Below are positions 1,011 through 60,996 of a stretch of 64,000 bases of DNA, in pieces; within the stretch, counting starts at the first letter, position 1; every line of letters begins with the position of its first letter. The stretch lies in contig RSEE01000040.1 of NCBI GenBank assembly GCA_003971905.1, positions 62,001 through 126,000 on the forward strand, written 5' to 3'. A model generated the notes under the pieces. It was not told the DNA's origin and ran no database searches. It saw nothing but the letters and a program-made list of their open reading frames with translations. The stretch comes from Moniliella sp. 'wahieum' (lineage: Eukaryota). A program made the position numbers and the translations under genes.

Positions 1011-1244
1011 CGTTTTGCACACCCCATGGCTTGAGGGACTGTAGAATCTGTTTGGGGCGGCAACATATCCACCGAAGTCATGTGCCAACGTTCAACGTTT
1101 TCAACACGTTCAACATGTCATCCACCGGCCTATTCGAAGGTCTCCCTCCACGGAGGCCAATCATTAATCATCATTACTTGTCCTCGGCCTCACATGCGGC
1201 TGCATGATAGTGGGCACAAGTGCTGCTGCGCAAACGCGAAGAGG

Positions 1245-1443
1245 TGACCGGTGATCGATGAGAACGGAGATCTGTGAGATCGGGATCGATGAGCAGATGA
1301 GCTAATCAGCGTGAGGCCTGAGTGCCTGAGCGATGGCTCATCGGCTGAGCGAGAACCGGGGGCCTCGGGCCGGTGAAGCGTTCGTTTCCTCTGCTCCTCA
1401 TGTCATGGATGAGGCTGAAGCGGCGCTGAAGCTTGAAGCTTGA
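1245..1443. repeat. Heptamer TNA-palindrome lattice cluster
   Basis: TGA CCGG TGA TCGA TGA (1245-1261), TGA GGCC TGA (1312-1321), TGA AGCT TGA AGCT TGA (1427-1443). Confidence 0.85.
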
Positions 1444-2330
1444 AAAAAATCAGATTATCGAAGATCGATGAGAGAAGCTTTTGCAACCGGAAGGGGGGGA
1501 CAGATGGATTTGGTGGTGCGCAAAAGTTGTAGGTGGCCCTGGCAAGGTAATAAATCAAAGCAGAGGCCTCCCCACCGCGGGCCGGAGGGGGACAGGTAGG
1601 CGGGAATGGTCGGTAGCCTGTAGGGTGGCGGTGTAGGGTGTACGACTGTACTTTCGCAGTCGCAATGCCATGATTGAATGTCATGGCGGGGGCACTGGGG
1701 CACTGCTGGCACGGAGGGGCTGAGCGCTCGGAAGCCCAGAGCGCTCAGCCTGGGCGTTTAGCCGCTTAGCCGCCGTGGCGGCATCCTCCAGCACTGGCGG
1801 TGTGCCCCTATAGACCTCCGTCTGACCGGCTGACTACTGCCCGCAGGCCGCAGCTGGCGCGCCTCGTGCGGGGGTGGCGGACCACGTGGGGGGGGCGTCC
1901 GGGCGAGCCAGTGACGAGCCGGAGCACCTGCGACGGAGCCTGGGGGCAGTGTGCCCGCGTCGCTTCCGCTTGGTGCATGCGGCTGATCGCTACGGATCGG
2001 CAAGGGTCGAGCTGCAGCCTGCAGCGCTGCTGCCCCAGCGCTGCACCCGGGAGAACCGCAGTGGGCCGCAGGGGGCCGCTCCAGCGCTAAGCGCTAAGCG
2101 CTCAAAGCAGGAAGCGTCGACTACGCGTCACGCACATCAACGCTCAACCAGAACTCAGGTCGGCGCAGCGGCGGGGCGCCGAGCTTGCAGATTGCTCCGC
2201 CTTCCCTTGGCGGTCGGCGAGCCAGTTGTCTGTATGTAACCTAACATCACGCCTCGCACATCATCCGCCAGCTCGCTCGGCTGGGTCTGTGTTCGCTGCT
2301 GCCTGGTGCGGTGCAGCGCGCAGGGCATCT

Positions 2331-2340
2331 CTATATATAT
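2331..2340 (+). promoter_or_regulatory. Putative TATA box of GMC oxidoreductase gene
   Basis: CTATATATAT in GC-rich context about 115 bp upstream of ATG 2452, followed by a CT-rich tract. Confidence 0.55.
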
Positions 2341-2451
2341 CGCCGCCATCCACACTCGCCAACCCGTTGACATCCCCCTTTTGTGTCCACCCGCGCCACC
2401 CCCACCTTCGCTTCCGCTTCTCTCATCCATCTCCCCCTCCCTCTCCCTGCC

Positions 2452-7010: not shown

Positions 7011-7280
7011 TCACCGTCTTTGTTCCTTCCTTCCTTCGCTCCCCTTACCTCATTTCCCCCATTGGGTTCATTCCTTCTCTCCCATTGGTTCCAGCACTCG
7101 CCGTCAGGCACTTTGCTGCAATTAACGTTTCCCTTATATCTCTGTGCGTTTTGCGCTCTGGGTACATGGGTCATGCGTGAGCTTAAACTAGACGAGACAG
7201 AAGCCTAACTAACTAACTCTACGCCATACAAAGAAGGGAAGGTCTCGGAAAACTGCAATTAACCGATGAGCGTGCCTTTT

Positions 7281-7520
7281 TGTTGAGCCATCAGGTGCAT
7301 CAGGTGCTGGTGCTTTGGCCAATGTCCCTTCAGTTTCTCCTCAGGCCTGGGAGTTCCGTTGTTTTCTCTCCTGTTTTTTCCTTGTTCCGCAGCTTAGCTC
7401 CTGGTGGCGACTCGCTGCTTGATGTTCCTCTGTAGGCGTTGCTGGTTGGCTTAGACCACCACCACCACCAGTGCGATTGCATCACCCTCGAGGACCATCT
7501 GGACTCCAGGTCTCTCATCA
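7281..7520. mobile_element. Solo LTR, family A (240 bp)
   Basis: TG...CA termini (TGTTGAG...CTCATCA); perfect 5-bp TSD CTTTT at 7276-7280 and 7521-7525; close copy at 36992-37226. Confidence 0.9.
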
Positions 7521-8342
7521 CTTTTGGCATCATCCCCTTACCGGTTACCAATCTTGATGTTATCGATGGACAGAATCAGAAAAAAGGGTGGTTATCCATT
7601 GACCGGGTGACGGCAGGTGCACTGGAAGGTTGCGATGGCGGAGCCAGTTCGCTGGGCACAGGTGTTTGCGCCACATCGTGCTATGGGGTGGGGTGGATGT
7701 GGGATGCTTAATGCTTGATGGAGGGAGGCCTGTGTGATGATGTGGATACTCATGCTCATCCCATGGCCTACTGAAATATCACATTCGTACTGAAGATTGC
7801 ATTATGGGGCCGCACGACAGATGGCGTGCTAGTAAATAAAGGGGGATGATAAAAATCCATCGGAGAAAAGCAGCGCGAGTGGTGGAGCCGGCGTTGGGCG
7901 CGCTGGATGGGCGACGGTAGCAAAGGAGGGTCGGCAAAGGGTGCTTGGCTGCTTTGCCCGAGGAGGATTTCGTTTGAGTTGGATTGCGATCATCGATCAT
8001 TAGTTTTGCATCATGATAGCGTTTATCCGACTCGTACTCAGAGCCCCAGCACTCACTCAGTACTCACACTGTGTTGAACGAGGCTCGATGATCGATGAGT
8101 ACGACGAGCACGCCGTGTACTACGGCGTCCCAGGCGTCATGCCATCCCCCCATCGCGTCTTTTCGCCCTCACCCGCTTCACCCACCCGCCTGCTCTTCTT
8201 CCTCTTTTTCTTTCCCTTCCTCCTCTTCCTTTCGCCCCTCCAAGCAGGCACACATTCGCTGGCCACTGCCTTCCCATCTCTCGCCCCACTTAATCCCAGC
8301 CCTAATTGGGAGTTGGGTGAATCGTCATCGCCAGCAGCCAGC

Positions 8343-12339: not shown

Positions 12340-12625
12340 CAGATGCTCCGGCACTGGAAGGATTTGACTACTGGGTACTGACTCTCAATGGAAATGGTTC
12401 CTCGCTCGGATGTCTATCATGTTCGTCCGTGTCTATTACACGCGCTACCTCGGGTATTATGGGAACGGATGGCGGGCACCAAAAGAGGGTCCTGATCTCC
12501 TGGCGATTCCCCTGGTCCCCTAAGCGGGGTTGGTGCTACTAGCAGCACACGCAAGATGAACGGGTCGATTTCGGCGCAGCGTTTCTTTGTCCCAGCCTTA
12601 AGCTCTGTGTCAATGACATGGATGC
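12340..12625 (+). mobile_element. 3' fragment of CRE-like retrotransposon
   Basis: Aligns to 45065-45330: ggaaatggttcctcgctcggatgtc...gagggtcctgat...tgtcccagccttaagctctgt. Confidence 0.85.
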
Positions 12626-13287
12626 AGCGTTCATACGTTCATGTTCAACGTACGTTCAACGTACGTTCAATGCATTCTCCTGTACCCTCCAAGAAAGAAT
12701 ATGGCAAGCAATGCACTGAAAACTGAGAATTAAAGTGTGAACGTGTGAACGGGGCTTGCACTAACGGTGCCACGGCCCCTGTGTGGCACCACAGTTGGGG
12801 TCTCACCTTGGGGAGCGCTTAAGGGAAGAAAGATGGGCGGAAGAAAAGAAACCAAGAGGAAAGGGAAAGAAGGAGAGTCAGACATGTGAGCCTCACACTG
12901 ATGCGAGGCCAGGGGCAGGCAGGGCTGGGCAGACATCTAGTAGTAGACGAGACCCCCCGTTTTTGGAAAGGGGGCATTAACCGCATTGTTAACGTCGTGT
13001 GACATGTAACAACGCTTAGCGTGCAATAAAATTGGCGACTTGGACAGTGTTCAAATTTCCAAGTGGCCGGGCGCCAGTCAACTAGCCAAATCTCGGCCTT
13101 CAAGCTTCAAGCTTCTGATCTTCTGATCTTTCACGGAGACTTGGTTCCGACCTCCATCTCATTGACTCCTGGCGAGATCCGAGGCGATTCGAGGGGTGCA
13201 CATCCTGCATCACGGTGATGCCGATGATGTGTCACTCGTTACGTATAATAGGGGCCTTCAAACTTCAATCCCAAGTATAACTATAGT

Positions 13288-13347
13288 AAGTTTTGTAACT
13301 GCAAAAACCACGGTATAAAGTTTTGTAACTGCAAAAACCACGGTATA
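13288..13347. repeat. Exact 30-bp tandem duplication
   Basis: aagttttgtaactgcaaaaaccacggtata x2. Confidence 0.9.
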
Positions 13348-14814
13348 TAGCGCAAAAAGGCGTGTATAAGCGCGTGTAACAAACATGTAAAGCCTCAAAA
13401 CGGTTAAACGTTAAACGTTAAACTTCAAGACGGAAGGGCGGGCAGGAGGCAAAAGAGAGATCCCAAAGAAGCTAGAAAGAGCTGGAAAAACAAGAGATGA
13501 AACAAGAGATTAAGGTTCTGAGATCTATATGGGCACTAGCCGGGTACTCCAAATGAGGGCTCAGTTACTCAGTCTGGTGCAAGTCAATGAAACCAGGGTG
13601 TCTGGGGTGACGTAAGGTGTACTGGGTGCCGCACATATCGGTGGGCACAACCCCCTTCGCCGCCTTTTGTCGCCGGGTGGCCGCAATGTGGAGTCTGAAA
13701 TCTGGATAGGCCCGCGACCGCTCGGTGGTGTTCACCCTTTTTTTGCGGGGAGGGAGGCGGGGGAAGGCTAGAGGGTTTTTCGGGGCAGGTTTGCTTGGCA
13801 AGGGGCTAGTGGCCAATTCAGTTAATGATTAATGACCATCGACCTGGCATCCTCTTCCATCCTCCATCCCCCCTCGCACTGGTGTGTCGGCAGGTATACA
13901 AGGGCCAGCGCCAAGTGGAGAGGCCCCACGGTTAGGAACCCCAAGTATCAAGCTTGTCAAAAGCAGTGCCTTAAAGACCGCTTGTGCCACGCGAGCCCAG
14001 CGCGCATGGCGTGCGTATATGGAGCAGCCCATCACGGGCTAGGGGCAAGCACATGTCTACGCACCACCGACAGGCGAATCAGGAGCGGCCAAAAGCTGCC
14101 GCCGGCATGCCACCAGTCTCGTGCTGCATCCTTGGCAAGGCAAAAGCAGCAGCAGCAGGGGCGGATGGTTGTAGGGGAGTATGTTGAGCGCAGAGAGGCG
14201 AGACAAGCCGGTGCTGCGATGGCGTTCGATAGGGAAAATGGGAGCCACCCGGCATCTTCCAGTACAAAGACGCGCAGCATTGGTGACTACCGTGGGCTTG
14301 GAGTATCGGTCGCTTATTATCGCGTCACGCATGCCACTGTGTCACGGATCAGTGGCCCACGCCGGGGAAGCGTGGCTTGGTTGAATGATTAGGCCGTGGG
14401 TCGGTTAGGCCGTCGGCCCTTTGGTCCTCCATGAACGTTTCAAATGCCTAACCGGCCACCGCTGCCCGGATACAGCGCGTCGCACACCAGATCGAAGGGC
14501 CAAGCACGCAGGAGCAGTTGAGGTGCCGATGGGAGTTCGCTGACGCACTACTCTGTAACTCAGTACTCACTGAGGCTGGCTAGGGTAGGAGGAGGTAGCA
14601 CTGATGCATCATGCGCTGATGCGCAAGGCAGCTGGCGCAGTGCGGGTGGCTGCTCGGGCGCACTCTGTGTTGCGGGCCAGTGCCTCAGTCCCTAGTCCCC
14701 AGTCACAAGTCGTCACGGGTCACCACCAGTCAGCGCTCAGCACCTGAAACGAGCGCTGGCGGCTCTGCGCCTGAGTCCGTGAATGGGTAGGAGGGGGTGC
14801 TGAGAGGGTGAGTA

Positions 14815-15371
14815 TGACGCGTGACGCGTGACGGAGGACCGGGTACTCTGAGAAGGGCAAGCGGCGGCTGGTGGGGTGGGCATGTGTGCTCAGGTGCATG
14901 TGACCGCGGTGGATGAAATATGAAATTGAACGAAGGATCTGGCAGCTGGCCGCATAAGGCAGCAGGGGCCGGGGATGGTTGATGCATGATACATGATGCA
15001 TGATGCACCGGAACCTGGCGCCCAGGGGCAGTGGGCGACAGTGGATGGCAGCGCCGGCAGCGCTGACTAAGCTAGCGGGGAGCTTGGAGCTTCGCGTTTG
15101 GAGCTTGGAGCTTGGAGCTTGGAGCGTCAGCGTCACGCCTGACCTGAAGCTTGATGCTTCCGGGGCATGCCAATGCCTGTGCTGGCCGTGGGAGGCGCTG
15201 GATGTGGGTGTGTGGACGGGACGCAGACCGAGTCGAGACGTATCTGACGCAGACGCTGGACCGAGACGGGGGTTGGGGGCAGGCGGCTGCTGACTAGCAT
15301 CCGTCCAGCGCTTGGCACGGGGCACTTGCCCCTGGCATAGTCACCGGTCACCAGTCACTAGTCACCGCTCA
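14815..15371. repeat. Heptamer TNA-palindrome lattice cluster upstream of CDC24
   Basis: TGA CGCG TGA CGCG TGA (14815-14831); TGA TGCA TGA TACA TGA TGCA TGA (14980-15003); (TGG AGCT)3 (15099-15122); TCA CCGG TCA CCAG TCA CTAG TCA CCGC TCA (15341-15371). Confidence 0.85.
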
Positions 15372-18950: not shown

Positions 18951-20313
18951 CCTCGGTCCCTCGGTCGCGCGCGGGGGCCAGTGAGCATTGTCGTTTGTCA
19001 GCCGTCACGATGCGCGCTTCGGGGCAACGGCGAGACTGCCCGATTGGCGTACGTTGGCACAGGGTAAGGACACGGGAACCTGCTAGCACCTGCCTGCCTG
19101 CCTGCGTCGCCGTCTCAGATTCTGCCCTTCTTGTGTCTTATCCACTTTCCCTCCTAACCTCCCTCCCTCCTTTTTACTGTGCTAGGCCCCGCTGAACTCC
19201 TCTCTCTTGTGTTCTTCCTCCCACTCCCTCCTTTTGCCCCGTTTGCCCCCCCTCTCTCGCTTCATGCGCTTCTTGAGGTTGTGCGCGTCTTTTTCTCGGC
19301 CCTAACTTGGCATCCTCTTCCTGGCATTGTCCCCACGGTCTTTTCTTTACTGTATTCTTTGCCTCAGCCCTGTAAACCCATCTCCCCCCGAGTAGCCGGC
19401 TGTTGTTGTTATTATGGCCCCTACGGTGTTGTTTGTCGAGAGGAAAGAGCGAGCGCGGGTTGTCCCATGTCGGGCGACGATCGACATGGGACGCGTGTGA
19501 CGCGTGTGACGCGCGTGCCGATCCCAGTTCGGGTTCCCTACGGAGGAGCCGCTAGCCCACTCCGTACTCGGTACACTCATCAGCACTCAGCACACACCCT
19601 GCCTGGACCCGGATCCAACAGCTAATTTGTTCCATATGCCCATCCTCACAAACATCAACTAACAAACACTGCGACGAGGGGCCTGGTCAGAGGTTTTCGA
19701 TAGGCGAGCCAAGCAAACGATGGAAGCCAGGGGGATCACATGTCACAAGACGCGCCGTAGCGGCTATTACACGCGACCACTGCAAGACAAAGCCTCACTA
19801 CTAGTAGTATTACATTCATACTAGTATAGTCGCCCCGCTTTGGCTGCGTCGAGCTGACGGTCGGAGGCATGATCGAGCACCTTGCAACGAGCAACAGGAA
19901 GAGGATGGCACTGGTGGCAGCATCGCGGGCGCCGACGAGAGGAGAAAAAGGCAAGGTTGAAGACGCCTGCCCGTTCGAGGGGGCACACATCGCCCCAGAC
20001 GGGTGGGTGTGGGTGGTAAAATGGATTGCGTCGCACCTTCCCTCCTCTTCGGCCTACTGTCGTTCGACTCTGATTCTTGGCGACGCTGTAAATACCGACA
20101 TAAACTCTCAGCACTTGGGCGCAGGGTGTCGGGCGCGGCAGTGGACTTACAGTGTTTTCACGTCAAAAGCTTCCTCGTTGGGCGCTAGCGGATCGAAGAG
20201 ATGAGTGAAGATCGACGTGGATGTATACGGGTTGGCCGATGGGAGTGGCGCACAGACGGTTGTCTCTCACTCCTGTGGGAAGAGATGTCCTGAGAGGCGG
20301 GGGGGGCAAAAAG

Positions 20314-20996: not shown

Positions 20997-21176
20997 ACCT
21001 GTGCTCCTACCTGTGCTCCTACCTGTGCTCCTACCTGTACTCCTACCTGTGCTCCTGTGCTCCTGTGCTCCTGTGCTCCTGTGCTCCTGTGCTCCTGTGC
21101 TCCTGTGCTCCTGTGCTCCTGTGCTCCTGTGCTCCTGTGCTCCTGTGCTCCTGTGCTCCTGTGCTCCTGTGCTCCT
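20997..21176. repeat. Minisatellite: about 4 x ACCTGTGCTCCT followed by about 16 x GTGCTCCT
   Basis: Read directly from sequence. Confidence 0.95.
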
Positions 21177-21999
21177 GAGCCCCTGTGCCACATCACCGGC
21201 ATCACCCCTGCCGTCTGAGGAAGAGATGATCGATGATCCAAGTCGATCTCGATCAGGCTGCAGGCCTCTCAGGACGCGTGCAATCTGCGACTGGTTCAAC
21301 GTTCAACTGAAAGCCCAGAGAAACGTTCGGATTTCAATCCACAATCCAATCCAGTCGGAGAAAGCGCGGAGCCATTATTAGAAGGGGCGACCGGGGCGCG
21401 AGATGTGGGACAAAAAGGGCTGCGTCGGCGCGAGGGGGTCAGAGACCGGTCTGAGACTCAGATCTCAGATGCTGATGAAGAAGGCAATGGAGATCGACTA
21501 GGGCGTGACGCGTGACTGCTGCTGGCGATGGGGGGGTGGCCACGGCTGGCGTGGAGGGGTGCCAGCTGCGGCGCGAGATGGCGCGGATCGATGACGTAGA
21601 TGCTCGTGGCAGCCGCGGCAGGGCGAAGTGGGAAACGGGGCGCTCGGGTGCCTGTGTGCCGCGATGGCCGGGGTACACCGACGGCGGGAGCATTACGGAA
21701 GCAAGTTCAGCCGCCTGCTTGGCTTGGGTCGTGCTGGGCATGTGGGGTAAACGGTGTGGTGCCTCTGCGGCAGGCTTTGCTCTACTTGGTGCGCGTGGGA
21801 GTGCTTTGCTGTGCGCCGCGCGCTCCTGGGCGCTCAAGTTCAGCGGTCAGCGTCAGCGTCAGCGTCAACCACCACTGACTAGTCGTGACTGGATTTTTCC
21901 TCCAGGGGCGCTTCCCGCAACGCTCGGCGCAAGTGCGGCCATCCAACCACCACACCACCTCCGCTCGCCGCTCTTCTCCGCCCATTCGTCTCGGCTCCC

Positions 22000-25904: not shown

Positions 25905-26230
25905 GGATGGGGGAGGGGAGGAGGTGGTGGTGGAAGGGGTGGTAGAGAGACGGATGAATTGGCGATGCCCACAAGGTTTGCGATGTCCAGTTGCGGCTGG
26001 CACGCCCGTGATCGTGGGACGTGTGATCACGCCTCCTAGCTTGGGTAGGATCTAGAATGCAATGATTAATGATCGATGATGTTGACTTGGCACGCACACG
26101 GGCAGTCTTCAGCCCTCGGTCACCGATGGGTCACTAGTCCCGGATAACCGGTGATTGTCGCCTGCCCCCTCCCCTGGCGTGTGGTAGCCGGTAGAAGAGG
26201 CCGCAAGCTGCAAGACCGAAACGCTGGCTT

Positions 26231-26254
26231 CCACGTGGTACGTTGCCACGTGGC
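26231..26254. promoter_or_regulatory. Two CCACGTGG (UPRE/G-box-like) sites upstream of ERV29
   Basis: CCACGTGG at 26231-26238 and TGCCACGTGGC at 26244-26254, about 330 bp upstream of the ATG. Confidence 0.45.
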
Positions 26255-28423
26255 GACGGAGGTGGGCGTGCGAACAGGCTGCCGGCGGCGCATGTTTATC
26301 TCGTGTGCACCTCATGTGCGTTCCATGCGCTTCTCCCTCCTGCCCCAGGCTGGGATCCGAGGCCGATCCCTCGCCAGTTGCGGCTTACAGCACCTTGGCA
26401 CTCCCCGCCACGGCGTTCGGCGTGGCTGGGTTGGAAGGTGACATGGTGTCAACACCCAGAGAAGAAAATGAACAATGGCTAGTGCAGTGGGCCGGCGAGC
26501 AAAAGTGGGAGGGGGGCACATGCCGCATTTCACACGTCCCAGGTGATATGGCCACCCAAATGCATAGTAAGTACGTGTTAGTGAGGTAAAAAGCCTAGAG
26601 GAAACCCCACAGCAAAAGCCACACACACCATGCCTTGTGCTCCTGAGGCTCAGCGCGCTCAGGCTTGACGAGCTTGACGCGCTCTGAGATCTGACGCCTG
26701 ACGTCGAGCTGAAATACAACAGAAGTTAGTTGATATAATAGCACACCGATATCATAGTGGCGCTCGTCTCACGGACGAGAAAACAACCTTCTGCCCTCAC
26801 TTCCAGGGTGCTCTCCCGAGATTCCTGGTTGTGGGTGGAAAGAAGACTATGCCGATGATGAGGCCCATAATCCTGATGAACTTCATCACTCTGCCCCAAG
26901 CAGCCAGTGGGCACGGCTATTCATTGTGTGATGGGTTAAGCTATGGACAGCTTCCACCTCTCCATCATCTTCCCTCTTCTGCCCCCAACCCTGTGTCTTT
27001 TGGCCACGATGGACTCTGCACTTCGGACGCTGTCCATGGTGCAATCACATTTGTCCCACGATTCACATGCCGCAGCAGCACTGCTGTCGCCTCCAAGCCC
27101 ACACCTCCCCGCGTCATCACTTTTGTACCATCATGAAAATCCTACCTGTATAATTGAGAAGTGTCCTTTTGTCCAAAGAGCCCCGCAAAGCAACTTGCGA
27201 AAACCCGATTCTCCGCCGCATAAGTCTGCACGATTATCGCCCGTCTTTTCTCAAAGACGTCAAATAGTGTACAGAAGACAGGTTCGACACCCCACAGCAT
27301 CTAGAATTCCGTCCAGATCTTCCCATTCCTGGGACGAACGGCTGCAGAGCCTACGCCTAGCACCCCTGTTTCCTTCTACCAATCTGGTGTACCATAGTTG
27401 CCAATGACTTTTCCTGATCCTCAAGTATAGGTGCGTCAGATGTTGTCGTAAGTGCAGAATGCCGCCTCATCTTCCCCACTTGCTCATCTACAGTCAACAA
27501 GTGGGCTCTGCATCTTCCTATGCCTCCACCCCCCCACCCCCCTCTGTAGTGCCAGTGACAATGTCACCACCTTTCGCATCTCCAATCTTAGCCCCTATCC
27601 CTGTAGTCCGCACCCACATCCAACACCTATTTATACCGAACCGACTACTATATTGTCACCCCAGCAACCTCTCGGTTGTGATCAAGTCGAACCCTCCGAC
27701 GATGCGGGCCCTCAAGGCCCGCGACATGCTGGAATGAAAAGCATTCAAACGATTCAGTACCTAATATATATGGGCAATATTCAAGCCAAGTCAGTGCTGT
27801 GTGGCACGCAGCAACAGGCTCGGTTGCTTCCCGCCCACATGTCGAGAGGTGGTCCGGCTGGCAGGCTCAGCGTCCAAGTCCAGCCCCCGGCCCCTCTGCC
27901 CCCTCCCCCCTTTCTCTCATCTTGCCAAGATAATAGTATTGGACCTGAATCCCCCAACGGGCTGGATACAAGAACGGAGGGAATGTGAAGAAGGGACAGC
28001 GGATGCATGTACCACAGCCTTATCTCCCCACAACCGTTGCGCCGTCGCTCTGCCTCTCGGTCCTCGTGTTTGGGCAGCCATTAAAGGAGGCAGATGCCGA
28101 GCCACGCATTGATGACGTAGAGGGGACCGGCCTGCTTGTTCGGCCGGGTACCTCATGTCGTTCTCCACATGTGCAGGAGATACCAGGGTTACCTCTTGAA
28201 CTGGTTGTGGAACGAGCAAGCAGAGCACACGCCGGATAATGGGCCAGCCTCTTCATAGGTTCAGCGGATTTTTGTCCATGTGCTCCAATATAACAGCGGG
28301 TATAATGGCCACTAATTGTTAGGACATACGACACAGGGATAAGTTCTGGCATGGAGGTAACTCATTGAAGCGCCTATAATATAGCTTGTAGGGGTAATAG
28401 TGCAACGGAGAGCGAGACAGCAA

Positions 28424-28635
28424 ATATTCAGTACGAGGAGACCACCGGGCCTATGGCCCGGTCTGCTGCGTCTCGCCACCGTAGCCACCGTTCCACCGTT
28501 CCCCCGGTCCACCATTGCCACCTTAGCCACCGTTCCCCCCTTCGCCACCGTAGTTATAATATCACCGATACGCGCTAGCTGCGGGTGGCTGGGAACGTGG
28601 CACCGGTCGGCACGTGCCTATGACGTAAAAGATGC
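28424..28635 (+). mobile_element. Isolated copy of the putative 5' leader of the CRE-like element
   Basis: accgggcctatggcccggt hairpin, GCCACCGT-type subrepeats and gctgcgggtggctgggaacgtggcaccggtcggcacgtgcctatgacgtaaaagatgc, all shared with 43362-43581. Confidence 0.75.
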
Positions 28636-28887
28636 ACGGCGGACACTTTTTGCGTATGACATCGAGATAAAATCAGCCAGTGGCTACGCTCTCGAGCGAT
28701 GGTCAGCAATTGAGGGAGGAGTCGTCTAGCCCTCACACCTGCTCTGGCGAGTGTGCCGAGAGAAAGAGGATGAAGAGAGGAGACAGGCAGCCTTCCTCTT
28801 ATGGATTGTAGCACTCATCGTCTCACGGCCCGCCTCGCCTGCCCTTACTACACAAATACTTGTCATACCATCGACGTCATCCGACTA

Positions 28888-28948
28888 TCACCGATCATCG
28901 AGATCATCGATCATCGATCATCTGTCACATGTCACCGATCACCGGTCA
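28888..28948. repeat. Heptamer lattice (7 in-phase TCA)
   Basis: 28904-28948: TCA TCGA TCA TCGA TCA TCTG TCA CATG TCA CCGA TCA CCGG TCA. Confidence 0.9.
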
Positions 28949-29794
28949 CTCCGGTCACCGGCCTCATCTGCGGCTGGCATCGATATAGTCACTAGTCATC
29001 TGCAGTAGCTAATGGTAGTGCCACAGCAGGGTGTTTCGTGGTGGGCGAACTCCTGCGGGGGAATATAAGATTCAAGTAACAACACTCAGTTTGAGTACAC
29101 TCAGACGTGGTTGGTTGGTCACAGCAGACTTGTGGACGTGGGGCGACTGCAAGCAACTGCGGGCGGAGCGGCAGAGAGACGAGGGGGGCTATCGACAGTC
29201 CCTGTGCCGGGACGGGGGACAGTCTGGGAGGGGCGGGAAGGGACGACGTGTGACATGTGATGTATGATGTGGCGAATGAGCATAGTGGCTATATGTGTGG
29301 GTCGACTGAGGTTGAGTGGTTGAGTACTCAGATCAACGAGTAACTCAGATCTTAGACCGGGGGTATACGGAGAGGTTCTGCATTCATTTTCTCGTAGACG
29401 CCATACTTTAAAGTGCAACGCTCTAAGTACTCAGCGCGCTCAGCGCTAATAAAACACGCCTCAGCTGAGGCTGAGTATTATACTGCCCGAGTCCGCCTCG
29501 TTGAGTCGCTCGCTGAGTCGGAGCCTGTCGAACGTCGAAAAGGCTCTAGAAGAGGCGCTGGGCCAGGCGGCTGGTTATGACTGCATCCGATGGCATCAGC
29601 AGGGGCGGTGCGAGACGGGGCAGTATCAGTGGTGCACCAGCATCTCTTCGCGCACTTTTCCTCTCGCCCTCTCCCCTTCTTGCTCACCCTCGCGCCACCA
29701 GCATCCCCGTCGCCATCTCCAGCCGCTGAGCGTCTCTCTTGTTGCTGTTGTCCACCTTGCCTTTCTACTTGCCTTCCAAAAGCCGGTCCCCACC

Positions 29795-35417: not shown

Positions 35418-36594
35418 CGCAATGTCGCGGTCCGGAGCGAGGCACAGACTTGCAAAACCGCCCAGCAGAGCGGGGGGATCAGTGTGTGGGTGGGAATGGG
35501 AAGGGCGGCGGGCAGGACAGCAGGATCGGAGATGGGTGGCAAAACTGTCCTCCTCTTCCTTGCCGTTGCTAGCCGTGGGCCCGGGCGGGGTGAGAGGCGG
35601 GGCAGAAGCGGGCCATGGTCCGACGGCTGCCTGACGAGCGCATGTGTCTGTTGGGGGAGGTGGCGAGGGGTTGGCGGGGGCGGGTGTGAGGGAGGAGAGC
35701 AGGCCAATAGTGATGGAGGAGCGGTGTGGGAAGCGCGGATGGGCCGAGGGCGGGGCGGAGGAGGGGGCGGAGCGGCAACACTGGTGGAGGACGGCGACAT
35801 GAAGAGAAAGGTAGGCGGAGCGCTCAGGCTGCGCAATGAGATGGAAGGCCCGGGCGGTAGCGGGGAAGGGCAGGCGAGGGGAAGAGGAAGAGAAGAGGGA
35901 TGCTGGACTGGTGGGGAAGAACAACCGATATCAGTGTCGCACAAGCACATATCGCCGTCACACGTGGAAGGGATGATCGATGACAATGGATGAGGCCGGC
36001 CTGAGGCCCTGAGGTTGGCTTGGGTACGTACGAGGGGCAGATGTGTGATCGATGACCACCGATCAGCCAGGCTGGCTCTGGCTTGGTATTTGGCGTTGAT
36101 ATGATATTGACTGGCGTGTTGTGGCTGGTGACGGTGACGGGTGGTATATGATAGCGACGAGCTAGTAACAGAGAGCGGCCAGTGACCAGTGGCAAGTGAC
36201 TAGCTACTAGTTGAACCAGCTATTGGTACTGGTTCCTAGCTCCAGGGACTAGCCAGTGACTAGTGCTAGTGACCTAGTGACCAGGCGCTAGCGACTCGAC
36301 GGGTGAGCACTGGCTACTCTGTTGTTCGGGCCGCAATAGGCCGCAATCGGCCGCCACATCGTTGTTAAACGTGTTAAACGTTAAGCTCGTGAGCTTATTA
36401 GATCTTAGACGGATGGTGCCGTGGGCTGCCGTGCCCCATTTAGCCGACAGGCGCTGTGGCGTTTCTCAATTACGTACAGTGGAGCCCTGCGCTGCGTCCG
36501 CCGTACGAACAGTGCCCCCATTGCGCCACTCTCATTTGGGCCTGAGACCATTGAGGCGTTGGTGCCTCGACCATCTATCGTTACTAGTTACTAG

Positions 36595-43361: not shown

Positions 43362-43659
43362 TATTCACAAGGAGGACCACCGGGCCTACGGCCCGGTCAG
43401 CTGCTGCGTCGCCACCTTAGCCACCGTTCCCCTTCGCCACCGTAGCCACCGTTCCCCCGGTCCACCGTTCCACGCTGGAACCCTTCCACGCTGGAGAGGG
43501 CAAATAATATCACCGATTCTCTGGCTGCGGGTGGCTGGGAACGTGGCACCGGTCGGCACGTGCCTATGACGTAAAAGATGCCACGGCGTTTCGTCCCTTA
43601 ATATAATTTCCCCTGTCCCAGCCTTAAGCTCTGTCAATGAAATGGACGTGATCTAGGGA
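43362..43659 (+). mobile_element. Mini-element: putative CRE leader joined to the element's 3'-terminal ~50 bp
   Basis: Leader matches 28424-28635; 43611-43659 is identical to 45294-45342. Confidence 0.7.
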
Positions 43660-46975: not shown

Positions 46976-48329
46976 GATGAAGTTGTAAAGAAAAGTTGGG
47001 CGAGCCGACAGACGAAAATGAAGACGAGACGTGATGGTGGACGGATCGCAAACGAGACAGAGAAACAACAGTACTACTATAAAGTATCTATATAACAGGG
47101 CATCAAAAGGCTCAAGGCGTCAGGGGTTCTCCGGGCTCAACCGCTCACCGGTACCGGGGGCTCGTATGCTCACGCGCTCACGGAAGCGGGGACGCTCTAT
47201 CGGTTCGCGCAAAGGGGGGGTCAATGCCAAGTGGTGTGCGGGGGAGAAGAAATGAACGGCTTCTGAATGTGACTCGGGAGGGCCCCGCATGGACCTGATG
47301 GAGACTCATCTCATTAACCTACTCATTAAATAATTAGTACTTAGTTATGAACCTTTGTGCCAATATCCCCACATGCCACAGTATTTGTCCTTTTTAACCT
47401 GTTTCTTCAATCTTCACATGCACAGGCCTCATGGGCCTGAGGCCTCTTCATCTTGACTTACCGGTTACCGGTTACCGCCACACGCCGCGTTTTACCATCA
47501 CAATTGTGCTTCAGCTTCAAGCTTCATGAAGCTTCAGACCAGCTTCCTCTTCCCAGAAGCTTTATTTCCGTATACGGGGGTAATATGCTCCAAAAACCTG
47601 TTTTATATGTTGGTTCCCCACATTGCGTTTTGGTCTCACAGTTCAATATCCCTTTTTTGCCACATGTGTCGGATCCCGTCTGCACTTTTTTATTCTGCTG
47701 GCACGGGTCATAGTCCAACAGGTCCGTTAATCCAGGCCAAAAGGATATGTCTATAAAATGTTGTACTGTCTGCGCTGGCTGTGGAAGTCAAAGACTCCAA
47801 CTTCTCACAAACCCAGCAAAAGCCCTCGTGTTACATTTTACTTGCTGGTAATTATTCAATAGTAAACTAGCTTTGCATCAGAACAAAAGTGAGTAAGACA
47901 CAGGAGGGGGAAACAATCTAAACGTCCATTCAGTTTTTGTCGCACTGACTTCTCGCCCACCCTGCCAGCCTTTTGGCCTCCGCTTAGGTACGCGTACCGA
48001 ATTGGGATCCACAATAACAGTGCACTGCAGTGGTATAACATTATTGCCACAACGCAATATCTATTTTGCATCCATTTTGACAGAGAGTATACTAAGGCTA
48101 AGACAGGGAAGCGCTCTACGCCTAAGCCGACCCGTTCATATGTGTTGTTGCTGCTGAAGGAGTGGAGTGGAATGGAGGATGGTACCTCGAGGGAGAGGTA
48201 CAGGAGGCTATGAGAAGGGTAGGGCCTTATATAGACGAGGGTACGCGGGAGCTGAGGAAGCTTCCGGGCGATAAGAGGGGTGATGACTATCACGCAGGAT
48301 GGCCTGATTATTGGGCATCGCGCCCCAAC

Positions 48330-48855
48330 AGTTGCTTGGTAGCTCCACCCGTTAAGGAACCAGGGGGATCGCCAGGATATCAGGTCCCTCTGGTGCCCGC
48401 ATCCGGTCCCATACCGAGGTTGCGCGTGTGTTGGACACGGATGAAGTGGTAGACATCGAGGGAGGAACCATGCTAAGGGTAGTGAGAGAAGGGGAAGATG
48501 GAGGTGTGTCATTCAGAGGAGTCCTAGGCGGATGGTAGATATAAAAGGGGAGAGCCGGAGTCATAACAGAGTGGGTACGTAAACCACATGCGGACCATGT
48601 GGTTTAGTCTACGTGATCAGGCTGACAAACCATTCCAATTGAGAATCAGTAGTAAATCCTTCCATGCCCAAGCACCTTGCCCGCTGTCTTGGTGCCGTAG
48701 TATCCTCGCGTCGTCAAAACCAGGGGGAAAAATGCTATTGAGTAGCGTCCCTGGTACTTGGTGTTCTTGTCGCATTCTGTTTGTTCCAGCAGCCGAAGCA
48801 GCTCCTTCTCCCGGCGTTCCAAAGGCGTCGCGGTGCTCGCATGCACCACCCTCTA
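48330..48855 (-). mobile_element. 3' fragment of CRE-like retrotransposon, interrupted by solo LTR B
   Basis: Translations VHASTATPLERREKELLRLLEQTECDKNTKYQGR...TAGK and EGPDILAIPLVP* match the C-terminus of ORF 44409..45233. Confidence 0.88.
48471..48627. mobile_element. Solo LTR-like insertion, family B (157 bp)
   Basis: TG...CA termini; perfect 5-bp TSD AACCA (48466-48470, 48628-48632); internal TATAAAA (48540-48546) and 11-bp hairpin (48580-48606). Confidence 0.8.
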
Positions 48856-50274: not shown

Positions 50275-50526
50275 TGTCGAGCCACCGCGGGTGGCGCATG
50301 TGTTTGGCGCCAAAGCGTCCGCTCTGTCTTTCTCAGGCCTAATCGGAGTTCCGATGCGTTCTCGTTTCTGTTTCCTTGTTCGACAACCTGATAGTCGCTG
50401 GCGGGTCTGGCTGCTTACTGTCCCTCTTGAGGCGTTGCTGGCTGACTTAGTCTCCACCACCACTAGTGCCATTATTGCATCACCCTCGAGGCCACCCTCA
50501 GGCCGCAGGACGCAAAGATCTCGTCA
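50275..50526. mobile_element. Older diverged solo LTR, family A
   Basis: TGTCGAGCC...CTCGTCA; shares ccaccactagtg..attgcatcaccctcgagg with the 7281 and 36992 copies; TSD degraded (GCCTT/GTCAT). Confidence 0.7.
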
Positions 50527-50850: not shown

Positions 50851-51030
50851 TCACTAGTCATTAGTAACTAGTAACTAGCCACTAGCTCACTAGCACTCGA
50901 GACGAGCATCCGACATGGAGAGGGCGATGATTTAACTTGAAGCTTGAAGCTTGAAGCTTGAAGGTTGATTAATGATTACTGCAATGATCAGATGGTTGAT
51001 GCATGATGCATGTCGATCGATGACCGATGA
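50851..51030. repeat. Heptamer lattice cluster upstream of ROT1
   Basis: TCA CTAG TCA TTAG TAA CTAG TAA CTAG (50851-50878); TGA AGCT TGA AGCT TGA AGCT TGA AGGT TGA TTAA TGA (50938-50975); TGA TGCA TGA TGCA (50997-51010). Confidence 0.9.
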
Positions 51031-51935
51031 TCATTTCGATGATTGTCGATCATCGAGCAGACAACGCCTTTGCAAGAGCTGGACGGGGGTATATATATCC
51101 TGGCTTTGATGTGGCTTCCCTCAGGCACTGTGAGCATGTGAGCGGGTGAGTGGTGAGCCTGAGGCCTGAGCGCCTGAGCCCCCAACCCCCTCTGAGCTCA
51201 ACGCTGCTCAACCGCTGAGGGCTGAGGCGCTGAGGCGCTCTCGGCGGATAAACTAATCGCAAGTACGAAATACTCATGTGTGCCAGTGCGTTGTGGCTCC
51301 CACGGTTAGCTCCTGGCACTCCCTCGCACCCCTTATCGATCCTACCCTAGACGAAGGAGCGAATCGCACAGCGCCCGTTGTTTTATCAGCTGCAGGATGC
51401 TGCGGGGCAGGCAAGGTGGGCCCTGGCGTTAGCCCTAATTGCGCTTATAGCAGGCGTTGGTGCGTTTGCCCACGCCAACAGGCACTGGGACAGTATTCAA
51501 TATTCAGCCAGCGCTCGCTAGCAACTAGTCACCCATCCTACATCACGCATCATTACCATTGCGGCCGGGGCCCCAGCGAGCGCCCTCAGGTGACCGGTGA
51601 CGTGCCGGTGAGGCCTCAGGCTTTGGGTCCCCATTTACGTACTTACGCCTCAATGCATCCGTGTGCAGGGGGTTCTACACAGGCAGCATGCGGAGCGAAG
51701 CTCGTACAGGCGTTTGGGCCGAGTGGACGTACAACGCCGATCAGCTTCAAGGAGGCGTGCCAGCCAGGGCGTGCCCTGGTCGACGCGGGCGCAATGCCGC
51801 ATATGGTTGGCTGGCTCGGCTACCACAAGGCACAAAAGCACCGCCGATCCGACCGACTATGGCTACGCGAGTGTTCGCCGCAATCGCATCAGACATCAGA
51901 TCTTTCCTCGTCTCTCCACCATCACCTCCACCCCA

Positions 51936-53141: not shown

Positions 53142-53223
53142 GTTTCCTCTCGTCACTAGTCACTTGGACCTACGACCGTTTCCTCTCGTCACTAGTCACT
53201 TGGACCTACGACCGTTTCCTCTC
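53142..53223. repeat. Exact 36-bp tandem duplication (2.3 copies)
   Basis: gtttcctctcgtcactagtcacttggacctacgacc x2 plus partial. Confidence 0.9.
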
Positions 53224-56600: not shown

Positions 56601-57298
56601 GCTGACGATGGATGCTGTGGACTAGTATAGGTTAGGCAGGGGCGATGCTAGCGATGGCGACAACGACGCCCCAACGTTGGGGATGTCGACGCAAGATTGT
56701 AGCCGGTCGGGCCGCAGCAGCGCCACAGCTGCATGGCGGCCACGTTGGGTTTCCTGGGACACCATGCGGTTCAATTGCTTACGTCATCCCATTGTGTCTA
56801 CCAGGGTTTAACGTTTAACGTTCCACTGAACTGAACGTTCAACCATTTAACGTTCAACAGTTCAACACCATCGACGTTCAACACGTCCAAGGTCCAAGGT
56901 CTGACCTCAGTCTGATGGGTCTTGAGGATTACGGCTCAGCAGGTTCAGCGCGCTCATCGATCATGGATCATCGCGTCCCATCTTTACATTGTGTTTGCTA
57001 GGCCGTTCATGTCATGGCATTTGCATAGGTTAACAACGCACATGCCTGTGGCAGCTCCAGCTGCCGTTGGCGAGCACCGAAAATAGCATGGACGCTTCGA
57101 GCACAAACAGCAAACAGAACCTTGGCCATGATCCTGCGCTGAGACTGCTCATTTTGGGAGGGAGGGAAGTATGTATATGGGTAGCCCTGATGAAGAGGGA
57201 CACAGCGCTGAGGCTTCAGTATTGAGGGCCGAGGCGCTCAGGGAGGGAAAATTGTGCAAGAGACAACAACAACAACAACAAGAGGGTGCGTCATTCTT

Positions 57299-57935: not shown

Positions 57936-58782
57936 GTCGAATAATGAGTCGGTGGGCTGGCTAGAGACCTTCTGGACGGCACACTCAAAGCCCAGAGCAA
58001 GCGGATTGGATATCGGGCATAGCCACGGCAGGGTTGCTGCGGCAAGTAGCTAGAAGACAACAGGCACCGGGCTACATTCCTACAATAGGGTTACTGGCCC
58101 GGAGTGGGGCCACTCATCACGTGATTGATCTTCTTAGATCTCATCGATCTCATGCATGACAATATGTGTCAGCGCTTGCTCTCGTGCTACAGTGAGGGGC
58201 TCCCGGTGAAGGCCACCCCCTTGGCCTCAGGCTCAGGCGTCCAGCTCGTCCAGGTCTGGTTTGCCCCGCACCAAAAACGGGTTGGCGGGGTCTCAGACGG
58301 TGACTTTTAATACCAGGCCTCAGATGTGGCGGCACTATCATGTACGACAGGCTGATGGCCGATGTATGTTGCCGGGCCCGTTCCAGAACAGTTTAGGTTT
58401 TGTTGAAGAGCGTAGAACACAGGCGATCAATTATGGCCCCTCTCGTGGCCGGACCACGCTGCCAGGGGTTAACATCCACGGCAAGTAAGTGTTAACACGT
58501 CCATGGACGAAGCTCGTACGCTTGATTGGAGAGAGAGGCTAACTGGACTATTATGCCGGCACGGGAATTGAAACTGGACTGTGGGGGATAGCTGTGGAGC
58601 TGAAGCAAGGAACTGGATTAGAGTGGGACATATAGGGAAGGTGAGGGGGTGGGACAGGTGGGACAGGGCAGTGGGACTGCATTATCGGATGATCATAAAA
58701 ATCGATTAGGATCCAAGCGACTAGGGGAATGAATGTTGGAGAGGTGAAATACTGGAAACTGGAGAGCTGGAGGGTTAAAGAC

Positions 58783-58848
58783 AGGAAAATCAACTAGGCG
58801 ACTAGAAGAAGAATTAGGAAAATCAACTAGGCGACTAGAAGAAGAATT
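58783..58848. repeat. Exact 33-bp tandem duplication
   Basis: aggaaaatcaactaggcgactagaagaagaatt x2. Confidence 0.9.
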
Positions 58849-59281
58849 TCCTTGATCTCATCGATTGATTGAGAGAAGGCGAGAATTCGGGTAACTTTCG
58901 CCGAAAGGGGACTATGCGTCCAAACAGGGACAAGGAACCGAAAACGGACAAGCTATGCAGGCAGTGCGATTTTGATACACACAGAAAATGCACGATAGTA
59001 CCAAGTGGGTTGTGTCACGGAAACAAGCCTAGGAGAACTATTACAATTCCACTAGTTGGCCCGTCCCTGTCTGACTCTCCCTTAGGTAGACTCAATGCGC
59101 GAGCACCACGGAGAAAGCCTTAGGGCGATGCCGGACCACTACCCAATGGATCTGATGAGCTCTGCCAGTACCCACATTGAATGTACTATTACAACTCGTC
59201 CAGCTAACCAGAGCCACTCTTCATTCTCAGACCGAAGTATTTTTGATTGTACCAATTGTAATATGGCGCCTACCGCCTCTC

Positions 59282-60273
59282 TCACAGGAACAGACGGAAG
59301 GATACATCCCGTTCTTCATCCGGAATATGGCGATCAACACCGAGAAGCCCGCCAAGAGAATAGCGGACCAAACATAAACCCCAGCACGCTGCCGTGTCTT
59401 GGATGGCTGGTTGGGCACCGCCTTGACGAGTGCCCAACCGAAAAGGCCAATAGCGTGTAAAGACCTGCAATGATGCCTGTCTCAGCGCTGTACTGGTTCT
59501 GAAAGCCAGATGCAAGTAGGTCACTGCCCCCTGGTCCATATCCGGCAAAAGGAGCTCCACGGATCTGGTTCCACATGTATCCTGCTGTCTGCGTCACGAT
59601 GATGCCCAGTACGAGGATGGCCCAGATAAGCTTAGAGCTCGCGCCGATAGAAACATGTTGCCGTAAGAAAAACACGGTTGCCGTTCCTATGACAGGGACG
59701 TGACGGCCGTAAAGCCTTGAACCAAGGGAAAGAGCTGAGTAAGGCACTGCCTTGCCGCGCTGGGTCTCGAGCCACTCAGCAATGTCCTCCGCTCGTACGA
59801 GCCCGTAGCAAAGTCGTATTTGGAAGGACTGCCCGATCCGGGGGGAAATAGAAGCACTGGGGCGTGGGTTACACGAAGCTGTTGTATCTCCGACATCTGA
59901 TGCCCAGATAGTTTACAAAGGGGAGACGACGTACGCGGGTGAAGACCTCGCGCGACTTGAAGAAGTCGAGCGTGGCAAAGACCAAGGACGAGTCACGGCG
60001 TTTGGACCATTGCTTGGAGAGCGAGTCCCAACGAGGCTGCACTGTTTGCACGCTTCGCACTGTGCACCACCGGCCATAGTGGTGAAGAGCACGGCAGCGC
60101 CGTGCACGCGGGGCATCAGCCAACTCACTGAACAAACTGGACGTGAGCTCGACTGCCCCGCCTTGCCTGTAGGACAGGGCGGCAAATTTGTCACCAGTAG
60201 TACCGGCTGACACAAGACTCAGCGCACCAAGTGCAGCGAGTACTGGCCCGAGGACGAAGTTGCCGAAGCGCAT
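59282..60273 (-). CDS. OST3: Oligosaccharyltransferase subunit Ost3/Ost6 (thioredoxin-like)
   Basis: Signal peptide; QCEACK (CxxC); VFATLDF; GYMWNQIRGAPF; SGFQNQYSAET; IFRMKNGMYP-FRLFL*. Short intron near 59897-59934. Confidence 0.9.
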
Positions 60274-60996
60274 CGTGCAGACAGAGGGTGTAGGCAAAGG
60301 TGATGGGGCAGTTCCAGATGGAGGACAGCGACTCCCCGGACCTGACAACGTGGCGGTTGCGAAGCTGACGTGAAGGCTGGGTTATGTAATCTGCGGTCCC
60401 AGCCAGCCCCCAAATCACCACAGCTTCTGCGGCTTGAGCTTGGCTGCGTCCCGCTTTGACAGCTGCCACAGTCATGCATCATGCCATCTATGCCCACCGC
60501 ACCAGCTCCTGGATCCGACGTCCAACGTCGGTTGTTGGTGGGAGCAAGCTGAGCGCTGATTGGTTGAAGGCGATGCCACTGGTGTGATGCATGATGCACG
60601 ATGCGTGTGATGGTGAGAAGCAGTAAGGTCTAAGAGTGCGCGCAACGCTTTGGTTGAGGCTTCAAGATTAGAATGGTGGTGGTGGTGGTGTGTAGCAGCA
60701 GGCGTCGTCCATGCGACCGTCCTCGCAGAGCAGGAGATGCGTGTGAGGCGCTCAAGCGCACAAGCTGGTCGGCAGACTCTCAGTGAGGCGACGTGAAGCT
60801 TGAAGCTGCAAGCCATGGAGGCTCAGCGCCTCAGGCCTGTTCAGGCTGTGACATTTCAAAAAGTGCAGTTCCGCCACCGGAAAAGCCGTCAACCCTGTGG
60901 CACCCACAGCGACAGCCAGGAGCCGTTGGCGAGCTGGACGAGCGGCCGCTTCACCACCCCATCGACCCTACGACCACCCTCACAGCTGCGGATGCA

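Follow-up and report, generated by a model that had tools for sequence, protein, structure and literature searches.

The non-coding DNA of the 64-kb stretch analysed here (positions 62,001 to 126,000 of contig RSEE01000040.1, from the Moniliella sp. 'wahieum' assembly GCA_003971905.1; hereafter "the window", with coordinates counted from its first nucleotide) carries a peculiar kind of short array, in which trinucleotides of the form TNA follow each other every 7 bp and are separated by a 4-nt palindrome. We call these arrays lattices. The window has a G+C content of 57% and contains intron-bearing fungal genes for a CDC24-type RhoGEF, Rot1, SURF4, 6-phosphofructo-2-kinase (6PF2K) and V-ATPase D, together with genes for an AhpC/TSA peroxiredoxin, OST3, RPL26, a MIF4G protein and a GMC oxidoreductase. 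This DNA is fungal and belongs to the Ustilaginomycotina: the nearest named homologues of the 6PF2K protein are from Tilletiaria anomala (60%), then from Pseudozyma, Exobasidium, Ustilago and Tilletia. Frames supported by Pfam served as gene reference, the calls of a codon model (30% of the window coding) being too weak. All counts given below refer to this single window and to unrelated control contigs.

The TNA-[4-nt palindrome]-TNA 10-mer occurs 86 times, in 53 clusters, against an expectation of 7.8 +/- 2.9 derived from 200 dinucleotide-preserving shuffles of the window (z=27), and the form with the same N in both trinucleotides occurs 70 times, against about 2.1-2.4. The original prediction had reported such units from the sequence alone and had proposed a comparison with shuffled DNA and with non-palindromic spacers; TNA pairs separated by a non-palindromic tetranucleotide are indeed at chance level (126 versus 122), and all 36 coordinates that it listed carry T.A-[4-nt palindrome]-T.A exactly as placed. 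Its statement that 14 of the 16 possible palindromes are used is reproduced in the count over the whole window, where these 14 appear at similar frequencies and only AATT and TATA are missing. Palindromic spacers are not comparably enriched with any of the 15 remaining anchors of the type XNY (TNG comes highest, with 25 versus 14), and the dyad-symmetric anchors are near or below expectation (ANT 11 versus 8.2, CNG 18 versus 25.8, GNC 20 versus 24.9). Among exact same-N anchors, TGA was found 32 times for 0.93 expected, TCA 26 for 0.92, TTA 7 for 0.10 and TAA 5 for 0.07; since all four are enriched (28- to 71-fold), the middle base of TNA is free. The spacer length of 4 nt is specific, symmetric spacers of other lengths giving 33 observed for 28.7 expected (2 nt), 42 for 33.9 (3 nt), 15 for 8.4 (5 nt), 7 for 2.0 (6 nt) and 3 for 0.4 (8 nt). 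The same signal is seen in exact period-7 tandem arrays of at least 14 bp, of which 25 out of 43 are made of TNA-plus-palindrome units (about 2.7% by chance); no dyad-symmetric excess was detected in arrays of periods 5, 6, 8 and 9, and isolated single units barely exceed chance once the lattices are accounted for.

As negative controls, and for this purpose only, we used 77 eukaryotic, mostly fungal-looking metagenome loci (587,293 bp) recovered by a 6PF2K alignment scan, mostly at 48% identity or less and with no close relative among them. They contain 108 palindromic for 1732 non-palindromic spacers, a ratio of 0.062 that corresponds to chance, whereas the ratio in the window is 0.68, and the two N are the same in only 22 of these 108 matches. 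The lattice is therefore a lineage-specific feature and no general property of fungal DNA.

The lattices are located upstream of genes. Around ten Pfam-supported genes, 40 matches lie in the 1 kb upstream and 3 in the 1 kb downstream, which bears out the description of the lattices as promoter-associated; their supposed rarity in coding DNA is likewise borne out, with 3 of the 86 matches inside 13.5 kb of Pfam-supported frames. Same-N matches number 46 in the 24.2 kb of DNA poor in open reading frames (ORFs), as opposed to 21 in 39.6 kb of long-ORF DNA, and shuffling confined to the low-ORF fraction leaves 1.08 expected for these 46. No match at all lies in the gap separating the convergent 6PF2K and SURF4 genes, and TGA and TCA orientations are intermixed inside individual promoters. 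A preference for promoters is common to hAT, P and Mutator elements.

The fine structure of the lattices sets limits on how they may have originated. The two N are identical in 70 of the 86 matches, complementary in 6 and otherwise different in 10, when about one quarter should be identical by chance. This indicates that the second TNA is a direct copy of the first, as in a target-site duplication (TSD), and not a motif requirement; N being the same rather than complementary, the 10-mer is not a snap-back palindrome either. The 70 same-N 10-mers form 63 exact period-7 runs, 57 of which contain no more than two TNA. The commonest run lengths are 12-14 nt (6 runs of 10 nt, 4 of 11, 17 of 12, 12 of 13, 11 of 14 and 13 longer than 14), so that 39 of the 63 runs, being below 14 bp, are too short for a plain tandem duplication of a 7-mer. 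The runs end either at the outer TNA or exactly 2 nt past it, that is, at the centre of the next would-be palindrome.

The original prediction also held that the palindrome reflects the dinucleotide flanking the TNA, and this is what we found in 51 of the 63 runs, mostly on one side: the 4-nt spacer consists of the flanking dinucleotide followed or preceded by its own reverse complement. In 41 runs the flanking dinucleotide keeps the period on a single side (22 left, 19 right), in 10 it does so on both sides and in 12 on neither, the chance of being in register amounting to about 1/16 per side. This one-sidedness exceeds independence (chi-square about 5.6, calculated by hand from the 41, 10 and 12 runs). 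Flank positions 1-2 match in 60-68% of cases and positions farther out in 25-47%; by eye, most of the 12 "neither" runs either sit within a chain or miss the register on a flank by a single substitution. Perfect copies predominate, with 70 perfect palindromes among same-N spacers, 26 one-off (14 expected) and 33 two-off (21 expected), and the missing flank can therefore not be put down to longer arrays having eroded. Since decayed copies are few, we estimate that the scars are young, at roughly 4-7% neutral divergence.

Several minor classes of products point to the length of the underlying duplication. If the bases around the target are written abTNAcd, with primes for complements, period-9 products in which abTNAcd is repeated after d'c' or after b'a' are present 4 and 2 times for 0.01 and 0.03 expected, with all flank conditions imposed (an exact 7-bp case is CATCACC-GG-CATCACC at 21193). 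One base is trimmed in the period-8 products (bTNAcd d'c' bTNAcd and the mirror form), which are present 5 and 5 times for 0.04 and 0.03. We observe directly in these variants, as we do for the statistics and for the flank rule, direct duplications of 6 bp (period 8) and 7 bp (period 9) that are split by a 2-nt reflection, in agreement with the earlier proposal of a 7-bp duplication at nnTNAnn. There are in addition 3 period-11 products TNA-pal4-pal4-TNA, in which both overhangs of the mechanism discussed below would have been kept (0.1 expected), 2 products with a 1-nt reflection (0.13 expected) and 6 with complementary N (2.45 expected). The palindromic 7-mer GTT(C/G)AAC recurs at 19 sites, with periods 7, 8, 9 and 11 (positions include 1090, 1108, 12643, 12654, 21294, 21301, 56837, 56852, 56860 and 56876; GTTNAAC occurs 27 times for 10.2 expected); it may represent a preferred target or a motif of its own.

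Going through the window from its start, four runs lie at 1159..1322, upstream of a GMC-oxidoreductase-like gene, with TCA-TTAA-TCA, a chained TGA-CCGG-TGA-TCGA-TGA and TGA-GGCC-TGA among them. They are followed by (TGAAGCT)x2.6, with three TNA in phase, at 1427..1444, by the array TAA-GCGC-TAA-GCGC-TCA at 2083..2104, and by TCA-TCGA-TCA, TCA-GTAC-TCA and TGA-TCGA-TGA at 7987..8098. The period-11 array TCA+ACGTACGT at 12643..12670 is a product of the "both overhangs kept" type at the palindromic site GT-TCA-AC, and 13098..13835 contains TCA-AGCT-TCA (13098), (TAAACGT)x3 (13403) and TGA-TTAA-TGA (13822). In the promoter of the CDC24-like gene (14558..15365) we count ten 10-mers, including (TGACGCG)x2.7, (TGATGCA)x4 and a chained TCA array with CCGG, CCAG and CTAG. 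The same promoter carries (GGAGCTT)x6.7 at 15079-15125, where AGCT is spaced by TGG in place of TGA; this looks like a lattice with a mutated anchor that has then been expanded, presumably by slippage. A period-9 array at 19490..19517 shows the full 7-bp duplication TG-TGA-CG with a 2-nt reflection, and the 6PF2K promoter (21193..21516) combines the exact period-9 product mentioned above with four period-7 runs. Also upstream of 6PF2K, a minisatellite at 20997-21188, (ACCTGTGCTCCT)x5 running into (CCTGTGCT)x18, has no relation to the TNA grammar.

Upstream of SURF4 (minus strand), at 26061..26694, are a chained TGA-TTAA-TGA-TCGA-TGA, TAA-CCGG-TGA, TGA-GATC-TGA and a period-9 product at 26666. 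The longest chained lattice, at 28887..28998, opens with a period-9 product and has TCA with the successive spacers TCGA, TCGA, TCTG, CATG, CCGA and CCGG, a clear instance of the previously noted chaining of different spacers in one phase; the TCGA and CATG that border the non-palindromic TCTG are reflections of its two halves. Five more 10-mers lie upstream of the LRR-RhoGEF gene (29249..29449). The region 35972..36594 has TGA-TCGA-TGA (twice), TGA-GGCCGGCC-TGA, TTA-GATC-TTA and TTA-CTAG-TTA, plus period-8 products at 36002 and 36270 and a period-9 product at 36366. At 47334..47536 one finds TTA-GTAC-TTA, (TTACCGG)x2.9 and TCA-AGCT-TCA; the last (47513-47536) stands against its own mirror image (TCA|TGA-AGCT-TCA), making a 14-nt perfect palindrome between two TCA, which may be a longer hairpin reflection at the scar.

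A TCA/TAA-CTAG array, (TGAAGCT)x4 chained to TGA-TTAA-TGA, and (TGATGCA)x2.3 lie upstream of Rot1 (50851..51012), and the neighbouring region 51131..51618 has period-8 products (51131, 51167, 51223), TGA-GGCC-TGA, TCA-ATAT-TCA, TGA-CCGG-TGA and TGA-GGCC-TCA. TCA-CTAG-TCA (53152..53200) is present in each copy of a 36-bp perfect intergenic tandem duplication (53142-53223), and this scar therefore predates the duplication; other perfect intergenic tandem duplications, of 30 bp and 33 bp, are found at 13288-13347 and 58783-58848. Upstream of the AhpC/TSA gene (minus strand), 56806..56964 contains (TTAACGT)x2.4, TGA-ACGT-TCA, TTA-ACGT-TCA and TCA-TCGA-TCA. The RPL26 gene (minus strand) has TTA-GATC-TCA and TCA-TGCA-TGA (58134..58159) about 100 bp upstream. 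Finally, the divergent promoter of the OST3 and MIF4G genes (60472..60807) has four runs, with spacers TGCA, GCGC, TGCA and AGCT.

The window also contains repeats of other kinds. A dispersed family, whose copies are 74-98% identical, is found at 36839-37397, 44891-45342, 48331-48853 (inverted), 12372-12622, 43367-43659 and 28433-28641. Two of these copies form an inverted pair about 3.1-3.7 kb apart; a 296-aa ORF (44343-45230), which has a single, unnamed database homologue (63% identity), overlaps the left copy. The family probably consists of copies of an unclassified transposable element or of a gene fragment that such an element has spread; no lattice was seen inside them. A 229-bp insert that starts with TG and ends with CA is present at 37000-37226 and 7298-7517 (93% identical), with a weaker copy at 50332-50495, and shows an apparent 5-bp duplication, (A/C)CGTT, by comparison with an empty paralogous site near 45132. 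It looks like a solo long terminal repeat, and we discarded the TCA-ACGT-TCA at 37224 as a chance product of its right junction. One insert copy has a +9 duplication (unit CATCAGGTG) at 7289-7307 that is missing from the copy at 37000-37226.

How could such a structure arise? We favour, as a fairly probable explanation, the idea that excision of a cut-and-paste DNA transposon, now gone from these sites, left the lattices as scars. The element would insert into open promoter DNA at nnTNAnn, duplicating 7 bp (abTNAcd), and its excision would seal each flank as a perfect hairpin. The host would then open these hairpins 2 nt past the tip, giving a left end ..abTNA with the 4-nt palindromic 3' overhang cdd'c', and a right end TNAcd.. 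whose 3' overhang, b'a'ab, belongs to the other strand. End joining would ligate one overhang to the opposite recessed 5' end and discard the other. The product, abTNA-cdd'c'-TNAcd or abTNA-b'a'ab-TNAcd, would be 7 bp longer and have one flank in register, a 4-nt palindrome and the same N in both TNA, which is the dominant class. Opening of the discarded side nearer to the tip would yield the minor period-8 and period-9 classes, and retention of both overhangs would yield TNA-pal4-pal4-TNA. A later visit to either TNA would add a unit, with the same spacer if the reflected flank is already lattice and with a different palindrome otherwise; inside a scar, three of the four possible outcomes would repeat the spacer and the fourth would bring in a new palindrome. 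Repeat visits would thus account for homogeneous arrays as well as for chains in which different spacers keep one phase. The insertion and excision, the hairpins, the offset at which they are opened and the identity of the element are all things that we infer. Every part of the earlier interpretation (a 7-bp nnTNAnn duplication with a reflected dinucleotide) that could be tested in the window held.

There are several points against this scenario, beginning with the fact that it is based on a single window. Within the window, a search for elements with a 7-bp nnTNAnn duplication and terminal inverted repeats (TIRs) matching at 10 of 12 positions gave no candidate, no insert resembling a miniature inverted-repeat transposable element was found flanked by TNA with inverted ends of at least 10 nt, and transposase domains are absent among the 300 open frames of at least 92 aa. 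No empty/filled pair in the window proves insertion; the one paralogue indel at a TCA site (the +9 duplication at 7289-7307) is ambiguous and may equally be a plain 9-bp tandem duplication. Two products that one would expect are weakly represented: plain abTNAcd x2 (4 versus 0.19, two of the four being phase aliases of other arrays) and the side product TNATNA with the same N (48 versus 38.4). About one scar per kb requires very heavy and sustained transposition, in a lineage regarded as transposon-poor, although by rough arithmetic about 10^-5 to 10^-4 fixed events per genome per generation would be needed, which is not absurd. To our knowledge, no superfamily joins a TNA-centred 7-bp TSD with even-centred palindromes. 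Last, published hairpin footprints are far more varied, with 28 different ones in 128 Candida revertants as reported in the excerpts available of PMC5873905.

Several known systems come close to the lattices, the hAT elements among them. Their target consensus, nTnnnnAn, has T and A four apart, versus one base apart in the inferred lattice target. hAT elements usually make TSDs of 8 bp, variants with 5, 6 and 7 bp having been described, and the 7-bp duplication inferred for the lattices would fit only the hAT7 variant. The footprints of Ac/Ds, a hAT element whose excision has been followed in plants, S. cerevisiae and Candida albicans, are described as palindromic copies of flanking DNA produced via hairpins (PMC4561436), and the account of Ac/Ds in Candida albicans mentions short P-nucleotide insertions with two predominant products, ligase IV being able to join ends without microhomology (PMC5873905). 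Ac/Ds thus resembles the lattices in that both copies of the target duplication are kept, in its short palindromic insertions derived from the flank and in its host-specific predominant products, and the zero-loop palindromes of the lattices, built from flanking DNA, match the signature of hairpin intermediates given in these accounts, as had been suggested (PMC4561436, PMC5873905). However, hAT palindromes are described as centred on the base complementary to the one that borders the element, whereas lattice spacers are even 4-mers without a centre base, and the Ac/Ds footprints reported there are heterogeneous, whereas one product dominates the lattices (PMC5873905). We rejected odd-centred hairpins of the hAT type for the lattices: same-N odd spacers of 3 nt (15 versus 9.1) and of 5 nt (15 versus 8.4) are not clearly enriched. 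None of the 300 window frames matches hAT or other transposase families.

Like the lattices, PIF/Harbinger elements (Tourist, mPing) prefer regions near genes and involve 3-bp duplications of the TNA/TWA type. According to the part of PMC4561436 that deals with them, they excise precisely via complementary 5' TSD overhangs and both matching TSDs are never seen left, whereas the lattices have a duplication of 5-7 bp with both copies retained around a filler; we therefore rejected a 3-bp TNA duplication, the repeat reaching 6-7 bp. The original prediction had refrained from assigning the lattices to either PIF/Harbinger or hAT, rightly so, given precise PIF excision and a duplication longer than 3 bp on the one hand, and base-centred hAT palindromes as opposed to even ones on the other. 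The footprints of Tc1/mariner and Stowaway also consist of a duplication, a few extra bases and the duplication again, but their filler comes from the element termini and is constant per family, whereas the lattice filler is made of 14 palindromes that track the local flank (51 of 63 runs). Filler from element termini would need 14 families for 14 palindromes and would ignore the flank rule.

The TSD is 5 bp long for Transib and RAG and 8-10 bp long for MULEs, and Artemis opens hairpins at a 2-nt offset. The zero-loop 4-nt palindromes of the lattices, built from flank dinucleotides, are of the kind that perfect flank hairpins of the Transib/RAG type would give, but period-5 nnTNA/TNAnn duplications, which a 5-bp TSD should leave, are close to expectation (8 versus 4.5), and the 5 or 6 matches to a 5-bp model with reflection from the TNA side read as sequence coincidences. 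A 5-bp duplication with 2 P nucleotides was rejected, as it needs strict one-sidedness, and the period-5 and both-P period-9 products are absent. Flank hairpins are described for hAT, Transib, RAG1 and Muta1, and their opening may be due to host enzymes such as Artemis; Muta1 excision in yeast is given as more than 90% precise (PMC5499845, in part). As proposed for the lattices, the P nucleotides of V(D)J recombination and the products of Transib/RAG and Muta1 involve perfect flank hairpins that nucleases of the host open off-centre into short even palindromes (PMC5499845), but unlike these systems the lattice window has no sequence resembling a recombination signal sequence or a TIR.

Closer in phylogeny, two basidiomycete cut-and-paste families with 7-bp TSDs, hAT7 (from Pucciniales) and Kyakuja (from Laccaria), share both the phylum and the length of the target duplication with the inferred agent. 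Kyakuja, a KDZ element, has CA..TG termini and no TIRs, and its 7-bp TSD agrees with the duplication inferred for the lattices. The section consulted describes these families from Pucciniales and Agaricomycotina, not from Ustilaginomycotina, and no copy is present in the window (PMC12730594). In a more general vein, the abstract-level account of Bendich & Rogers (bioRxiv 10.1101/2023.02.20.529178) has the non-coding DNA of rDNA spacers fill with short direct repeats from transposon visits; this general inference is drawn from unspecific short repeats, and as presented there it has no defined grammar, target or palindrome rule. In the available text of the sources cited, none of hAT, Transib/RAG, Muta1, hAT7 and Kyakuja joins a 7-bp TNA-centred target with even 4-nt palindromes, or is reported to leave lattices, and our full-text literature searches returned no description of the lattice, nor of heptamer arrays in Ustilago.

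We also consider agents other than a known transposon. One possibility, which we regard as doubtful, is an undescribed lineage-specific system, either a new cut-and-paste superfamily (with a 7-bp TNA-centred target, perfect hairpins and near-obligatory excision) or a domesticated transposase that would time and again break promoter DNA and seal it afresh. Given the products, their density and a window in which neither element nor transposase was found, a host-encoded activity of the same geometry is also a live alternative. Here, TNA-directed break-and-repair in open promoter chromatin, for example by a domesticated transposase, would produce 7-nt staggered, hairpin-sealed breaks with no mobile element involved. 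The absence of element and transposase in the window speaks for it, as do the unusual uniformity of the products, their strong restriction to promoters and their high density in a window with little repeat DNA. However, direct duplication of 5-7 bp is the hallmark of an integration whose gaps are then filled, 64 kb without an element tell us little about the genome as a whole, and we know of no nuclease that fills a 7-nt stagger and also seals hairpins on the same ends; we consider this explanation unlikely. Fill-in at breaks of the Top2 type (4 bp) or Spo11 type (2 bp) can be dismissed by reasoning alone, as it would give direct repeats and not palindromes.

Explanations that require no break at nnTNAnn fare worse against the fine structure. 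Dyad-symmetric 7-mers could form slipped hairpins (a 4-5-bp stem with a TNA triloop) and expand by replication slippage as heptanucleotide microsatellites; lattices of at least 2 units are self-complementary on both strands, arrays reach 4 units, and the (GGAGCTT)6.7 derivative is plainly expanded. Nevertheless, slippage explains neither the 39 of 63 runs that are shorter than two full units, nor the 57 with only two TNA, nor run ends that are locked to TNA or TNA+2 instead of falling in random phases. It should also have enriched ANT, CNG and GNC anchors, symmetric units of periods 5, 6, 8 and 9, and single units, which are barely above chance once lattices are counted; end erosion would leave many decayed cores, which are not seen, and one grammar is common to 25 of the 43 exact period-7 arrays. 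We find this explanation improbable. The simpler idea of a plain 7-bp tandem duplication of pre-existing palindromic 7-mers fails because the runs are too short, and snap-back perfect 10-bp palindromes are excluded by the identical N (70 same, 6 complementary) and by a total of 75 10-bp palindromes for 65 expected. The strongly upstream location, the large excess of perfect over decayed copies and the resemblance of some lattice hexamers to known motifs (e.g. ACGCGT) would all suit cis-regulatory arrays under selection, for instance sites for a dimeric factor reading A-xyy'x'-T, or TGA repeats. Yet this would have to accommodate 14 unrelated palindromes at similar frequencies, an N that is free in identity but identical within the pair (which indicates copying, not binding), a spacer predictable from the neighbouring dinucleotide and mixed orientations inside single promoters, with inverted half-sites of the bZIP type (TGA..TCA) in the minority (complementary N in 6 of 86); we judge it very improbable. 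Finally, the arrays are known from one assembly alone, but an assembly or polishing artefact should not spare coding DNA and 3' regions or follow the flank-reflection rule, and there are point-mutated copies (the CCGG/CCAG/CTAG chain at 15340-15365) and a scar copied within a 36-bp tandem duplication. An artefact thus seems to us extremely improbable.

If the lattices are indeed excision scars, about one position per kb, and several per promoter, have been scarred by the visit of a transposon in a compact fungal genome. Cut-and-paste traffic that is invisible to ordinary repeat annotation would then be a major source of promoter indels, the scars making up, by a rough estimate, a few percent of all mutations fixed in the window. 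They would also amount to a large natural record of how hairpins are opened and ends joined in a basidiomycete (nearly always 2 nt off the tip, one overhang kept), at a time when comparable data on hairpin repair are limited to reporter assays that yield dozens to hundreds of events. The grammar could help to find the responsible element and, with sequence as the only input, could serve for dating and mapping both transposon activity and open chromatin. There is also a caution for motif finders, as these abundant promoter "motifs" are probably mutational and not regulatory. If, on the other hand, the lattices turn out to be the work of a lineage-specific system, these fungi would possess a built-in generator of 7-bp regulatory variation, with a readable "visit counter" in every promoter.

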